NCBI GenBank assembly: GCA_964501545.1
Contig: CAZCSH010000003.1
Location: 1-25,983, forward strand
Source of the DNA: an uncultured Candidatus Saccharibacteria bacterium
Lineage (GTDB): Bacteria > Patescibacteriota > Minisyncoccia > Minisyncoccales > RBG-13-42-11
Length of the DNA stretch: 25,983 bases
Reading direction: 5' to 3'
A program made the translations under genes and the position numbers. The notes under the pieces are model-generated. The model had not been told where the DNA came from and searched no databases. It was given only the letters and a program-made list of their open reading frames with translations. This document shows, piece by piece, positions 16,671 to 21,461 of the stretch (position 1 is the first letter of the stretch; the number at the start of each line of letters is the position of its first letter).

Positions 16671-17651
16671 ATGTCAAAAAGAGTTAGAAAAGTTGTTTGT
16701 TTTGGGGGCGGGAATCTAGTTCCCAAGGTTTTATTGGAACCTTTAAAGAAATACCCTGTTCAAATTACCAGTATCACTTCAATGACAGAGAGCGGAGGCT
16801 CGACAGGTTATTTGAGAAAAGAGCTCAATGTTTTGCCGGCAGGGGACATTAGCCGGCACTTAGTCGGTCTCTCTTCTGCCTCTAAATGGAAAAAGGATCT
16901 TTTTTATTCAAGATTTGGTAAAGAAAAGTTTCCTGGAGGTCATGCCGGCCATCGCTTTGGGACTGTTTTTATATCTTTGGCAGAATATGTTTTAGGAGAC
17001 TTTGAAAAAGCCTTGAAAGTAACCCATGACTTTTTGGAAGTAAAAAAACACAAGGCTTTACCTGCTACCCTTCAAAAGGTCCAACTGATGGCGGAACTGG
17101 AGAACGGGAAGACTATTGAGGGGGAGGACGAAATAGACGTTCCCAAAAGGCACAACCCGAAATTAAAGATTAAAAAAGTCTTTCTCAAACCTAAAGCCAA
17201 AGTTTATCCAAAGGTTAAAAAAGCAATAGTTGAGGCAGATTTAATCACTTTAGGCCCAGGCGATCTTTATTCCAGTACTATTCCTTGCCTCTTGCCAGAA
17301 GGAATGAAGGAGGCTTTTAGAAAAACAAAAGCCAAGAAAGTTTTAATCTGCAATGCCCTAGCTAAACTTGGAGAAACCAATAACTTTTCAGTTCTAGATT
17401 TCGTTAGAGAAGTGGAAAAATATATGGGTTTTTCCCTTGACTTCGTTCTCTATAATATTAAAACTATTGATAAAAGGTTAATGGAGGAATACAAAAGAGA
17501 TAACCCCTCAATTGTGATTGTGGGCCAGGTAAAGGTCAATAAGAACCTCAGAAAGCCAAAGTTTGTTGGCAAGGACTTATTAAGGAAAAAAGGCAAGGAT
17601 TTTGGCGGAGCTGACCTTATAAAAGAAATCTTTAACCTATGCAAGCTCTAA
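16671..17651 (+). CDS. yvcK: YvcK/GlmR (CofD-like, UPF0052) family protein
   Basis: Motifs VCFGGG, SMTESGGSTGYLR, PAGDI, GEDEID, LGPGDLYSSTIPCLL and LGETNNFS. Confidence 0.88.
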   Translation: MSKRVRKVVCFGGGNLVPKVLLEPLKKYPVQITSITSMTESGGSTGYLRKELNVLPAGDISRHLVGLSSASKWKKDLFYSRFGKEKFPGGHAGHRFGTVFISLAEYVLGDFEKALKVTHDFLEVKKHKALPATLQKVQLMAELENGKTIEGEDEIDVPKRHNPKLKIKKVFLKPKAKVYPKVKKAIVEADLITLGPGDLYSSTIPCLLPEGMKEAFRKTKAKKVLICNALAKLGETNNFSVLDFVREVEKYMGFSLDFVLYNIKTIDKRLMEEYKRDNPSIVIVGQVKVNKNLRKPKFVGKDLLRKKGKDFGGADLIKEIFNLCKL

Positions 17652-18883
17652 TTTTAGCCGCGGGAGAAAGCTCAAGATTTTGGCCCTTAAACCAAAGACA
17701 CAAATCCCAAATTAAGGTATTGGGAAAATCTTTGGTTAGCTGGACTATTCAAAGCTTAGAAGAGGCAGGGATCAAAGATGTTGTTCTGGTAGTTGGACCA
17801 AATTCTTCTTTGAAGGAAGAGTTTCCTTCGATTAGCCACCTTACCCAGGAAAAAGCCTTGGGAACAGGGAATGCTCTCTCTTTGGCCAAAGACCTGATCA
17901 AAGAACCCTTTCTCGTTGTTTGGCCTTACAAGATTAATGCTAAAGAAATTATCGATAAGGTTTTAGAGAAATATAAAGGAGAAAAACCCAAAGCAGTTTT
18001 GGTGGGTAGAAAAACTTCTCATCCCCATGATTACGGAATCCTCAAGACAGAAGGCGAGAGAGTGGTTGAAATTGTTGAAAATCCTCAAGCCGGAGCAGAG
18101 CCTTCGGACATTAAGGTTGTTGGAGCTTACTTTTTAGAGCCTGATTTTTTTGATTATTATCAAAAGATTGAAGAACACCATCCAGAAGATTTTATTGATG
18201 CTCTTAATAATTATATTAAAGAAAAAGCAACTAAACTGGTTGTTTTAGAAAAAGAACCTTCTTCTTTAAAGTATCCCTGGGAAGTCTTGGGGATATTACC
18301 TATGATGTTTGATTCAGACAATTTTAAACCCTCTATCTCCCAAACAGCTAAGATTGGGGAAAATGTGGTGATGGAGGGGGATGTTTATATTGGCGAGAAG
18401 GTTGTCATTGGGGCCAATACCGTGATTTTAGGCCCTTGTTATATTGGAGATAATTGTAAGATTGGGGCTAATAATGTTTTGAGGGGGCCGGTTAATTTGG
18501 AAAAAGATGTTGTCACCGGTGCTTTAATGGAGATTAAGAATTCTCTGGTCCAAGAGGGCACTCACTTTCATTCTGGCTACCTTGGTGACTCGGTTATTGG
18601 AAAGAATTGTCGTTTTGGGGCAGGCTTTATTGTGGCCAACAGAAGAATTGACAGGGGAAACATTAAATCAGTTGTCAAAGGAGAAAAAGTAGATACCGGG
18701 CTTACTTATTTGGGAGTAATTGTCGGAGATAATACTCGTTTTGGCATTCATTCGGGCACCATGCCAGGAGTTTTGATTGGCTCTGATTGTTTGATTGGTC
18801 CTGGCAGCTTAGTTTTTGAAAATCTTGAAGACAACACTGCTTTTTATACTAAGTTTGAAGGCGTGAGAAAAGAAAATAAATAA
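17639..18883 (+). CDS. Sugar-1-phosphate nucleotidyltransferase with hexapeptide (LbH) domain, archaeal-type GlmU-like
   Basis: N-terminal LILAAGESSRFWPL, QEKALGTG and YPWE, then hexapeptide repeats, HSGYLGDSVIG and GVIVGD. Confidence 0.82.
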   Translation: MQALILAAGESSRFWPLNQRHKSQIKVLGKSLVSWTIQSLEEAGIKDVVLVVGPNSSLKEEFPSISHLTQEKALGTGNALSLAKDLIKEPFLVVWPYKINAKEIIDKVLEKYKGEKPKAVLVGRKTSHPHDYGILKTEGERVVEIVENPQAGAEPSDIKVVGAYFLEPDFFDYYQKIEEHHPEDFIDALNNYIKEKATKLVVLEKEPSSLKYPWEVLGILPMMFDSDNFKPSISQTAKIGENVVMEGDVYIGEKVVIGANTVILGPCYIGDNCKIGANNVLRGPVNLEKDVVTGALMEIKNSLVQEGTHFHSGYLGDSVIGKNCRFGAGFIVANRRIDRGNIKSVVKGEKVDTGLTYLGVIVGDNTRFGIHSGTMPGVLIGSDCLIGPGSLVFENLEDNTAFYTKFEGVRKENK

Positions 18884-18912
18884 TCTTGTGGAAAAGTACT
18901 AATAAAGAGGGA

Positions 18913-18940
18913 TTGACAAGAATCCCTCTTTTGCTAATCT
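18913..18940 (+). promoter_or_regulatory. Sigma70-type promoter embedded in a terminator-like hairpin
   Basis: TTGACA (18913-18918), 16-nt spacer, TG-C-TAATCT (18932-18940). The -35 overlaps the loop of the inverted repeat AAGAGGGATT (18905-18914) / AATCCCTCTT (18921-18930). Confidence 0.55.
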
Positions 18941-18945
18941 GTGAT

Positions 18946-19316
18946 AAAGAGGTTAGGGCAGCCAGCCTTATTCCTCTCTTGCTGAAGGGGGCAACCTTGG
19001 TCTTTGGGGAAGGGTTCCCCTTTCGTATGTTGAGGTGCAGGGTTGCCCCTTTCTAGATCTTTCATTTCCTCGAAGGAGGAAGCAATTGCTTCATCAACTC
19101 AAACTGCCTTTAGTAGGGCCACGAGCTCGTTGATGAGTTCGTGGCCTAAAGCAAGCACGGCCCGGCAGAGCCCATCTGCCAGATCCAATTGGGGCCATAA
19201 GGTCCCAAAGAGGGTAAATCCCTCAAAAAGAAGAAAAGGGGTGAGCGCCCCGCCTCGTGCGGGGCGCCCCCACAAACTTCTCTCGGCTCCGTCCATAGCG
19301 TCGGAGCTCTTTTTTT
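18946..19316 (+). ncRNA. Putative structured non-coding RNA of unrecognised class
   Basis: GC-rich intergenic block with at least 7 stems, bracketed by a promoter and an intrinsic terminator. No convincing ORF. Confidence 0.45.
19286..19316 (+). terminator. Intrinsic terminator
   Basis: Stem GCTCCG (19286-19291) / CGGAGC (19302-19307), followed by TCTTTTTTT. Confidence 0.65.
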
Positions 19317-19331
19317 ATTCTTTTTGCTAAA

Positions 19332-19340
19332 TGGTATACT
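19332..19340 (+). promoter_or_regulatory. Extended -10 for the tsaC-MFS genes
   Basis: TG-G-TATACT, 8 nt before ATG 19349, implying a leaderless or very short leader. Confidence 0.5.
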
Positions 19341-19348
19341 TTAACAAT

Positions 19349-19933
19349 ATGGAAATATTGAAAGCAAAAAGAGTTTCCGGGAAAGTTGTGAGGCAGATTG
19401 TCAAAGAAATCAAAGAGGGCAAGGTCTTAATCTTCCCCACTGACACAGTTTATGGCTTGATTGCTGCAGCTACCAACAAGAAAGCAGTTGATAGGATTTT
19501 TCAGATAAAAAAAAGAAATAAGAGAAAACCAATACCTATATTTGTTAGAGATTTAAAGCAGGCAAAGGAATTGGCTGAGATAAACAAAGTCCAGGAAGTG
19601 CTTTTAAAGATAGCTTGGCCTGGCAAGATGACATTTGTTTTCTGGCGGAAGAGAAGGGAAAAGCTCTACGGGGTAGATAAAAAGAGTATTGCTCTGCGAA
19701 TCCCAGATTATCCTTTAGTCAGCAAGGTTTTAAAGAAAATAAGTCTTCCTTTGACCGGCACCTCAGCCAATATTTCAACTAAAGCTCCGACAACAAAGAT
19801 TAAAGAAGTCCTGAAAGAGTTTAAAGGTCAAAAATATCAGCCTGATTCAGTTGTTGATGCTGGCAATTTAAAACCAGCCGGACCCTCCACTGTTATTGAT
19901 CTAAGACAGGGTTTTAAGATTTTAAGAAAGTAA
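19349..19933 (+). CDS. tsaC: L-threonylcarbamoyladenylate synthase (YrdC/Sua5 N-domain)
   Basis: Motifs FPTDTVYG, IKKRNKRKPI, WPGKMT, ALRIPD, TSANIS and PSTVID. The track start 19331 falls inside the -10 box, so 19349 is preferred. Confidence 0.92.
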   Translation: MEILKAKRVSGKVVRQIVKEIKEGKVLIFPTDTVYGLIAAATNKKAVDRIFQIKKRNKRKPIPIFVRDLKQAKELAEINKVQEVLLKIAWPGKMTFVFWRKRREKLYGVDKKSIALRIPDYPLVSKVLKKISLPLTGTSANISTKAPTTKIKEVLKEFKGQKYQPDSVVDAGNLKPAGPSTVIDLRQGFKILRK

Positions 19934-21377: not shown

Positions 21378-21461
21378 TGGGCGAGGTGGGACTCGAACCC
21401 ACATGGAGCAAGCTCCACAGGTTTTTGAGACCTGTCTGTAAACCAATTCCAGCACTCGCCC
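21378..21461 (-). tRNA. tRNA-Leu(CAA), 84 nt, CCA not encoded
   Basis: Acceptor stem GGGCGAG/CTCGCCC plus A73, anticodon stem CAGGT/ACCTG with loop CT-CAA-AA, long variable arm TGGAGC-TT-GCTCCA, and T-arm GTGGG-TTCGAGT-CCCAC. Confidence 0.96.

Follow-up and report, generated by a model that had tools for sequence, protein, structure and literature searches.

What fills the long gap in front of tsaC in the genome of an uncultured Candidatus Saccharibacteria bacterium? In the 25,983 nucleotides (nt) of DNA analysed here (contig CAZCSH010000003.1 of assembly GCA_964501545.1, called the window throughout), tsaC follows a GlmU-like gene and is separated from it by positions 18884-19348. This 465-nt gap was the longest inside the window when open reading frames (ORFs) were called with translation table 11, and its GC content reached 0.47-0.59 over 18900-19299 compared to 0.36-0.43 in the flanks, or, in broad terms, 52-58% compared to ~40%. 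The original prediction, read from the sequence of the window, had described the gap as the only long intergenic region and as GC-rich against AT-rich spacers; our measurements agreed on both counts. According to the protein on record (P0001), tsaC starts at ATG 19349 and not at 19331, and the gap ends just before that ATG. We interpret ~18947-19316 of the plus strand as a stand-alone structured RNA gene of ~370 nt that lies outside the catalogued families, and we give this reading a probability of roughly 55%. That a real structured RNA gene is present on the plus strand appears very probable. The region of this candidate RNA is single-copy in the genome, for which reason an origin from a repeat or a mobile element was rejected.

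A chain of hairpins kept by compensatory substitutions

The plus strand of 18935-19320 folded with a minimum free energy (MFE) of -180 kcal/mol compared to -132 ± 5.4 kcal/mol for shuffled sequences (z = -9.0); the minus strand of the region had z = -5.5. All the stems listed in the original prediction turned out to be perfectly complementary, among them 18984-18996/19041-19053 (13 bp) and 19117-19128/19135-19146 (12 bp) with one G-U pair each, and also 19210-19214/19220-19224 and 19245-19253/19259-19267; for most of the listed stems the ensemble pair probability was 1.0. On the other hand, the proposed stem 19159-19163/19192-19196 had probability 0, being displaced by a hairpin at 19189-19208 (H6) that was the conserved one. 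The stem 19066-19071/19076-19081 (0.26) and the palindrome at 19079-19092 (0.60) are mutually exclusive.

The fold is a chain of local hairpins, all given here for the plus strand. It begins with P1 (18948-18977), which has an outer stem AGAGG/CCUCU and an inner stem UAGGGC/GCCUUA and is present in both the MFE and the centroid structures. P2 (18984-19053, probability 1.0) consists of the 13-bp base GAAGGGGGCAACC/GGUUGCCCCUUUC and a distal GGGGAAG...UUCCCC hairpin. It is followed by the palindromic hairpin GAAGCAAUUGCUUC (19079-19092, probability 0.6). Four of the downstream hairpins have probability 1.0, namely H4 (19116-19147, 13 bp, GGGCCACGAGCUC / GAGUUCGUGGCCU), H5 (19164-19180, GGCAGA / UCUGCC), H7 (19210-19224, GAGGG UAAAU CCCUC) and H8 (19238-19271), where a GGGG/CCCC outer stem is combined with a 9-bp GC stem GCGCCCCGC / GCGGGGCGC. 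H6 (19189-19208, UUGGGGCC AUAA GGUCCCAA) is a hairpin of the MFE structure. The chain leads into a tail ACAAACUUCU (19272-19281), whose CUUCU can pair with AGAAG 19230-19234, a pairing present in the MFE structure.

Related genomes are labelled G below (G000 being the genome analysed here), and contigs carrying loci of interest, mostly metagenomic, are labelled L. A BLAST search of the candidate RNA against 60 related genomes produced short low-complexity matches only; therefore, relatives were reached by synteny, in front of tsaC or behind the GlmU-like gene. The metagenome contigs L140, L135 and L138 were reached through GlmU-like homologues at 66-68% identity. The unit of L140, 303 nt long, aligned with the candidate RNA across the whole 3' part at 70% identity. 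A covariance model of the 3' domain (19101-19281, 45 pairs), built from the candidate RNA alone, matched L140 from end to end with 79.9 bits (E ~1e-23). In the model-based alignment of the two sequences 98.5% of the pair cells held standard pairs, and 9 pairs, distributed over five of the six helices, had changed on both sides. Structures slid by 1-3 columns gave 0-2 such double changes, and none of 500 shuffles reached the observed number. For example, H8 had four pairs changed on both sides and H5, which reads GGUCGA/UCGACC in L140, had two. In H4 two pairs changed on both sides and two became G-U, which makes three G-U pairs in all. H6 was kept as UUGGGC...GCCCAA, H7 was kept as well, and the tail was identical at 10 of 10 positions. 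The two sequences also differed by 10 indels located in loops and linkers, mostly of lengths that are not multiples of three. The palindromic hairpin was not conserved in L140. A by-eye comparison placed P1 at the same position there, with GAGG...CCUC kept around another inner stem; at the P1 position in G015, G001 and G014 we saw a GUAGGG/GUAGGA hairpin.

The P2 helix (GGGG..CCUUGG / CAGGG..CCCC) was common to G015, L135 and L138, with 8 of the 21 pairs changed on both sides. Its middle part co-varies, being CAA:UUG in the candidate RNA and UAGA:UCUA in L135. The nine double changes in L140, the compensation in P2 and the frame-breaking indels amount to pairing-type rather than codon-type conservation, which was the distinction that the original prediction had drawn for homologues. 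P1, P2 and H4-H8 form a chain of stable hairpins, and in the few lineages where these hairpins are shared, compensatory substitutions have preserved them. Further searches extended this set little: a model of the 3' domain (R2) found nothing more in 150 related genomes, and a model of P2 (R3) run on 201 related genomes matched only G015 (64 bits) besides G000 itself (82 bits). The candidate RNA is a mosaic, having its 5' module in common with one set of relatives and its 3' module with another: L140 has no P2, and G015 and L135 have no H4-H8.

The polarity of the RNA follows from the same data. The G-U pairs of H4, three of which occur in L140, would be C-A mismatches on the minus strand, and a U run follows the last hairpin on the plus strand only. 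This is in line with the earlier argument that G-U pairs favour the plus strand.

Within the species, the same locus was found at 99-100% identity in 10 contigs from other samples, and all the differences respect the fold. In L008 and L017 the palindromic hairpin has a loop lengthened by an inserted AA (2 nt). In L008 a U to C change at 19050 turns the G-U pair of the 13-bp P2 helix into G-C. L011 has one change in the 5' leader, and the five bases of its H8 loop (19254-19258) read as their exact reverse complement (ACGAG for CUCGU) on an unaltered 9-bp GC stem, a polymorphism by inversion of a hairpin loop.

Transcription signals and positional relatives

The promoter of the candidate RNA was read at 18913-18940 on the plus strand (TTGACA 18913-18918, a 16-nt spacer and TAATCT 18935-18940), with the start predicted at ~18947. 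The terminator on the same strand (19285-19316, probability 0.84) has a GGCUCCG...CGGAGCU stem to 19308, then C and U7 at 19310-19316. The earlier claim that the RNA has its own promoter and terminator held as far as both signals are readable and conserved in relatives, but both fell below the thresholds of a simple consensus scan. Upstream of the RNA, the GlmU-like gene has a terminator hairpin of its own (18906-18932, plus strand, AGAGGGAUU / AAUCCCUCU followed by UUU, read from the sequence). The -35 box of the RNA promoter overlaps the loop and the 3' arm of this hairpin, and such overlap of a terminator with TTGACA recurs in L135 and G017. The U run of the GlmU-like terminator forms the spacer of the RNA promoter. 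The promoter reads TTGACA-17-TAATCT in G015, L135 and G043; in G001, G014, the g9 genomes, L138 and L140, TTGACA is followed after 17 nt by TATCCT, TATTCT or TATCTT. All family members end in a hairpin with a U run.

The gene downstream has signals of its own. The extended -10 element of tsaC lies outside the RNA, on the plus strand at 19332-19351 if ATG 19349 is included (TG 19332-19333, TATACT 19335-19340). It ends 8 nt before the ATG, so that by its sequence the start is near-leaderless and has no Shine-Dalgarno (SD) motif. The same arrangement, with an extended -10 placed 6-9 nt before an SD-less start codon, was observed in 7 relatives, where the gene is tsaC in six cases and a BadF-type kinase gene in one. 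This recurrence bears out the earlier statement that tsaC has its own -10 and that the RNA looks like an independent transcript and not a leader. In the genome analysed here several genes, tsaC among them, have an extended -10 (TGnTATACT) at only 6-9 nt from the ATG, which points to leaderless mRNAs. As the promoter hexamers are kept in relatives and the downstream gene is both self-promoted and variable, the candidate RNA is predicted to be an independent unit with its own sigma-70-type promoter and intrinsic terminator.

Non-coding units, 136-500 nt long and of elevated GC content, occupy the place beside the GlmU-like gene or tsaC in ~10 lineages: G015, G014, G001, G003, G016, three g9 genomes, perhaps G024, and G043, which belongs to another family. 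The unit opens with TTGACA soon after the upstream stop codon, followed after a ~17-nt spacer by a -10 element (TAATCT, TATCCT or TATTCT). A 5' hairpin comes next, then a CU-rich tract, then the purine box (frequently GAAAGGAGGUGAUG) and finally a terminator. The unit is followed by an extended -10 (TGnTATACT), 6-9 nt before the SD-less downstream start codon. The gene after the unit differs by lineage, being tsaC, the BadF-type kinase gene or a gene of ~190 aa; in further lineages a different gene lies between the GlmU-like gene and tsaC. We infer a modular, fast-evolving RNA family whose members immediately follow the GlmU-like gene within a single family-level clade of Patescibacteria. The parts retained throughout the family would be the two ends (promoter and terminator), the 5' hairpin, the CU tract and the SD-like box together with its start codon and very short ORF. 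The hairpin modules lying among them would be swapped from one lineage to another.

Judged by synteny, the family probably arose from the 3' untranslated region (UTR) of the GlmU-like gene. In the RNA-less locus L139 (2470-2556), the terminator of the GlmU-like gene has GGCUCC and a CAUAGC loop as in 19285-19316, and the extended -10 of tsaC comes next. This likeness hints that the RNA grew inside the 3' UTR. An insertion of the RNA into an ancestral tsaC promoter, separating its -35 from its -10 box, was also considered; the same locus gave no support to it, and it was rejected.

The pattern GGAGGTGRTGYYWWTT matched 8 of the 301 genomes of the order, about equal to the reversed control, and about half of its matches were in coding sequence. 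The pattern RAAGGAGGTGRTGYTWWTTGA gave 44 matches in GTDB genome contigs, mostly gene starts of Lentilactobacillus and Paenibacillus, with no convincing new members. The only metagenome scan, for which TsaC was the seed, yielded a single locus of no relevance.

The purine box and the nature of the transcript

Inside the RNA lies an element that the original prediction had missed, an SD-like purine box GAAGGAGG (19072-19079, plus strand) followed by a short ORF. The putative mini-ORF MLHQLKLPLVGPRAR (19086-19133, plus strand) starts with UUG 6 nt after GGAGG and runs for 15 codons to UGA at 19131-19133. Its start codon is held in the loop and the 3' arm of the palindromic hairpin, its end forms the 5' strand of H4, and its stop codon is located in the H4 loop. 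The mini-ORF of L140 (MLFFRKLDLGGPWARF) sits at the equivalent place and likewise stops in the H4 loop. In L008 and L017 the AA insertion replaces UUG with AUG, and the mini-ORF is unchanged. An AAGGAGG-type box with a start codon was observed in 13 of the 14 family sequences, the exception being the truncated L138. The ORFs of G015 and L135 encode MIHGPRDFI and MIHGPRDFV, respectively; those of the other members have 4-42 codons and often start with ML followed by F or I. Upstream of the box, the CU-rich tract UUCCUCUCUU (18971-18980, plus strand) is anti-SD-like and may pair with GGAGGAA 19075-19081. Such CU tracts were also seen upstream of the purine box in G015, G014, G001 and G016.

SD motifs were not enriched at gene starts of this genome (9% of 454 predicted starts compared to 10% in a control window), and none of the 20 genes of the window had an SD-like motif at the start. 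A strong SD-like box is therefore exceptional here. It could be a real ribosome-binding site, a partner of the CU tracts or a binder of the 16S rRNA tail. A target search with the accessible segments was uninformative, as it found only SD-like mRNA sites pairing with the UUUCCUC segment. A purine box with a short ML-type ORF (AAAGGAGGTGATGCTTTTT, MLFNNLFLP) was also seen at an unrelated locus, L084 (G014 contig C29, ~17660), between a gene read as ychF-like and the next gene. In some relatives, therefore, the box may serve more generally as a leader module.

Comparison with Rfam 15 (4227 models) was made at gathering thresholds for the whole window and then at E<=10 with permissive filters over 18800-19400. 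At gathering thresholds the sole match in the window was a tRNA at 21378-21461. Under the lax settings the best scores in the region were 20-22 bits against cut-offs of 41-115, and these were terminator-type or chance matches; among them, a weak generic match to suhB/mmgR covered the RNA terminator. No match was found in the tsaC-upstream stretches of 10 relatives, positional equivalents included. The cmscan check proposed with the original prediction thus brought no family to its threshold in the region under either setting, and its statement that there is no transfer-messenger RNA (tmRNA), RNase P, signal recognition particle (SRP) or T-box signature agreed with the absence of any such match in the region.

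The individual families were considered in turn. ARAGORN detected no tmRNA in the window; the tmRNA of the genome is at C10:9755-10101 (C denotes contigs of this genome). The RNase P model RF00010 matched C4:99-407 (148 bits), not the region of the candidate RNA. For 6S RNA the region gave no match at E<=10, and the genome gave none at E<=1 with a model that is insensitive (5 of 14 controls detected); the fold, a chain of local hairpins, is not rod-like as in 6S RNA. Consequently, tmRNA, RNase P RNA and 6S RNA were rejected. SRP RNA had come into view because of the string GGAAGCA after a GAAG loop, which recalls SRP domain IV, and because the genome gave no SRP RNA match of its own. The SRP models RF00169 and RF01854 had no match in the region, nor in the genome at E<=1, and SRP RNA, small or large, was found in 0 of 41 related genomes. 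The M domain of Ffh was found in 0 of 31 genomes of the order compared to 14 of 14 controls, and no ORF of G000 carries the DTAGR motif of SRP GTPases. SRP RNA was rejected on these grounds, neither SRP RNA nor an Ffh M domain having turned up in the order, and because the string is not kept in relatives. The SRP appears to be absent from the whole order, which leaves the candidate RNA without an SRP partner. On sequence grounds, a riboswitch, a T-box or a leader-peptide attenuator of tsaC does not fit: tsaC is self-promoted, the downstream gene varies in relatives, and no sequence able to compete with the terminator stem was seen. With tblastn at E<=1 no homologue of CsrA or Hfq was found in the genome; a sponge of the CsrB/RsmZ type was rejected for want of a CsrA homologue and of a repeated motif in the loops. 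An mRNA of a type I toxin was rejected as well, the 15-codon MLHQLKLPLVGPRAR being not hydrophobic, where such toxins are hydrophobic membrane peptides of ~19 residues or more, and antisense signals not being seen.

What might such an RNA do? As judged from sequence features, a regulatory, possibly dual-function, small RNA is the assignment that we favour, though tentatively and with reserve. Such an RNA would act in trans, its hairpin array giving stability and exposing some conserved linkers in single-stranded form. Ribosomes would enter at the putative internal binding site and translate the 15-codon ORF, and, since this ORF ends in the H4 loop, translation would open H4 and remodel the RNA.

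The transcript could also be an mRNA for a micropeptide of ~15 residues, with the hairpins acting as structured UTRs that set its stability and mask the ribosome-binding site. No feature of primary sequence is kept more widely than the SD-like box and the start codon that follows it after 4-10 nt, and CU-rich tracts able to pair with the box flank it. The second codon is usually Leu, 9 of 15 residues are shared in frame with L140, the insertion in L008 creates an in-frame AUG, and the three differences between the ORFs of G015 and L135 are two synonymous changes and one conservative change. However, ORFs of 4-42 codons encode a peptide that is unalignable across the family, and the comparison with L140 includes five radical multi-base codon changes. 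The conserved bases of the 3' part of the ORF make a helix strand with compensated changes, ~320 of the 370 nt are outside the ORF and yet under pairing constraint, and the lack of SD enrichment in the genome makes the use of the box uncertain. We consider the micropeptide mRNA unlikely. If, on the other hand, translation of the mini-ORF decided termination at 19285-19316 before tsaC, the unit would be a cis-acting leader or attenuator. The unit does always lie on the same strand just upstream of the next gene, with the terminator 30-40 nt before that gene, and it does have short ORFs similar to leader peptides. Still, the downstream gene varies, and the constant neighbour is the upstream GlmU-like gene rather than tsaC. 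A read-through transcript would be poorly translated from an SD-less start that has its own extended -10; no alternative pairing competing with the terminator stem was seen, and between the ORF and the terminator lie independent hairpins that take up ~150 nt. This makes an attenuator quite improbable.

The purine box is the best-kept motif, and in relatives it takes the form GAAAGGAGGUGAU, with 13 nt complementary to the canonical 16S tail; in several of them the AUG overlaps the box, a spacing too small for normal initiation. Given also that SD motifs are not enriched at gene starts and that the neighbouring gene is near-leaderless, one may think of the RNA as a decoy whose box would attach to the 16S rRNA tail of 30S subunits and shift the balance of leaderless or SD-less versus SD-led translation. 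Both the decoy and this effect seem very improbable to us. The idea is pure inference, with the complementarity calculated against a canonical tail because the assembly has no 16S 3' end, and the box of the candidate RNA itself has a shorter form (GAAGGAGG), is in part base-paired according to the predicted fold and lies at a normal distance from the UUG. A non-functional or selfish spacer, made of hairpins or insert remnants accumulated in the 3' region of the GlmU-like gene, would explain the patchy presence, the module swapping and the narrow distribution. Against it stand the single-copy state of the region, the conserved promoter and terminator, a GC content well above that of the genome (the opposite of neutral decay in an AT-rich genome) and the compensatory changes that keep six helices across 30% sequence divergence; we give the spacer as little credence as the decoy. 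Finally, the region might encode a small protein, either in a 65-aa ORF on the minus strand (19099-19296) or in a 95-aa ORF on the plus strand. The 65-aa ORF is called by gene callers in several assemblies, and the loop inversion of L011 keeps its frame. Neither ORF, however, has a Pfam match, their codon log-odds are -0.13 and -0.23 compared to +0.11 to +0.34 in neighbouring genes, and no similarity was found in relatives, with stops and frame-breaking indels in the region of L140. The 65-aa ORF has no preceding promoter or SD, the 2-nt insertion of L008 breaks the 95-aa frame, and the G-U pairs favour the plus strand. A small protein is hardly credible.

Several observations weigh against the stand-alone structured RNA gene as well. 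The GlmU-like gene adjoins tsaC with no RNA between them in G025, G013, L136, L139 and L155/156, so that the RNA is dispensable in many lineages, and its distribution is narrow and patchy. For most positional relatives BLAST similarity was no better than in the reversed control; therefore, their membership rests on position, signals and motifs identified by eye. A single lineage supplies the covariation of the 3' domain and three lineages supply that of P2, and the 3' alignment was itself fitted to the model. The peptide of the mini-ORF is poorly conserved (9 of 15 residues shared with L140, several multi-base codon changes), and part of the ORF lies in H4, a stem whose changes are explained by pairing alone. 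The architecture is of the beads-on-a-string type, and neither a multi-helix junction nor a pseudoknot is evident. Nor is a very negative z-score specific, as a GC-rich patch on contig C15 had z = -8.95.

Similarities with known RNAs can be traced in several directions. The orphan structured non-coding RNAs raiA, OLE, ROOL and GOLLD come from GC-rich intergenic regions of AT-rich genomes (the GC-IGR approach). The candidate RNA is like them a GC-rich island in a small AT-rich genome, with a promoter, a terminator, compensated helices and no long ORF. Unlike them, it is limited to a handful of lineages, evolves faster, had no score against their models, carries an SD-like box with a mini-ORF and shows no multi-helix junction or pseudoknot. 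A predicted stand-alone terminated RNA of a few hundred nt with an embedded SD and a very short ORF is also reminiscent of the dual-function small RNAs SR1/SR1P of Bacillus, RNAIII/delta-haemolysin, SgrS/SgrT and Spot 42/SpfP. The candidate peptide, however, is shorter than theirs and its conservation is poor, the genome yielded no homologue of Hfq or CsrA, and a dual function is only putative here. As with DapZ and MicL, small RNAs that derive from 3' UTRs and have an internal promoter of their own, the RNA always lies directly after one gene on the same strand, its promoter overlaps or follows the end of that gene, and its terminator before tsaC resembles that of the GlmU-like gene in the RNA-less L139; in contrast to them, a separate terminator (18906-18932) stands between the GlmU-like gene and the RNA. 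The type I toxin mRNAs hok and AapA1 share with it a structured RNA, a small ORF and an SD that can be masked by CU tracts, one of them near the 3' end, but here the ORF has 4-16 codons in most members, is not hydrophobic and shows no sign of an antisense RNA gene. The size of ~350-400 nt, the GC richness and the presence of a promoter and a terminator are shared with tmRNA and RNase P RNA.

Non-coding DNA is scarce in the genomes of Patescibacteria (Candidate Phyla Radiation, CPR), which are of ~0.5 Mb. A 370-nt gene under pairing constraint is then costly and presumably useful. The mode of evolution is unusual: the position, promoter, terminator and SD-like box appear fixed, and whole hairpin modules appear to be exchanged between lineages. 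An SD box with a mini-ORF in a genome without SD enrichment would provide a handle on translation initiation and on small-RNA regulation. The narrow distribution, on the other hand, limits the immediate importance of the candidate RNA. At the far end of speculation, and with very little confidence, one could see a new class of ribosome-engaging regulatory RNAs in ultra-small, SD-poor and SRP-less bacteria. If that were true, 30S subunits would be captured, or the state of translation sensed, by the conserved hyper-SD box, whether or not the mini-ORF is translated; swappable hairpins would tune this, and the RNA would link cell-wall precursor synthesis, represented by the GlmU-like gene, to the neighbouring leaderless genes.

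Neighbouring genes and other patches of the genome

The assembly that holds the window (contig C3 in our labels) has 0.48 Mb in 41 contigs and is 92% complete. The closest named homologues of the proteins of the window belong to metagenome-assembled genomes of Patescibacteria labelled Candidatus Nealsonbacteria and similar. The gene order is murA on the minus strand, a CofD/YvcK-like gene, the GlmU-like gene (17639-18883, 414 aa, with nucleotidyltransferase and hexapeptide-repeat domains), the gap, tsaC and a gene for a major facilitator superfamily transporter.

Elsewhere in the genome, a match to the group I intron model RF00028 (76.7 bits) was located at C2:20689-20906 (L150:290-507). It sits in ~1.1 kb with no open stretch of at least 80 aa, ~400 nt upstream of a tRNA gene. 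Four patches, C11:16557-16904, C22:2490-2831, C10:18032-18845 and C5:15372-16378, have 54-61% GC and no Rfam match at gathering thresholds; as the C10 and C5 patches coincide in part with long open frames, these two are probably genes rich in GC. The patch on contig C15 (13140-13490, or L148:440-790), with 66-69% GC and the z-score of -8.95 given above, shows on its minus strand TTGACA-17-TATAAT, AAGGAGG, ATG and a coiled-coil-like ORF of ~64 aa. From these signals it is probably a small protein gene, among the few here with a clear SD.

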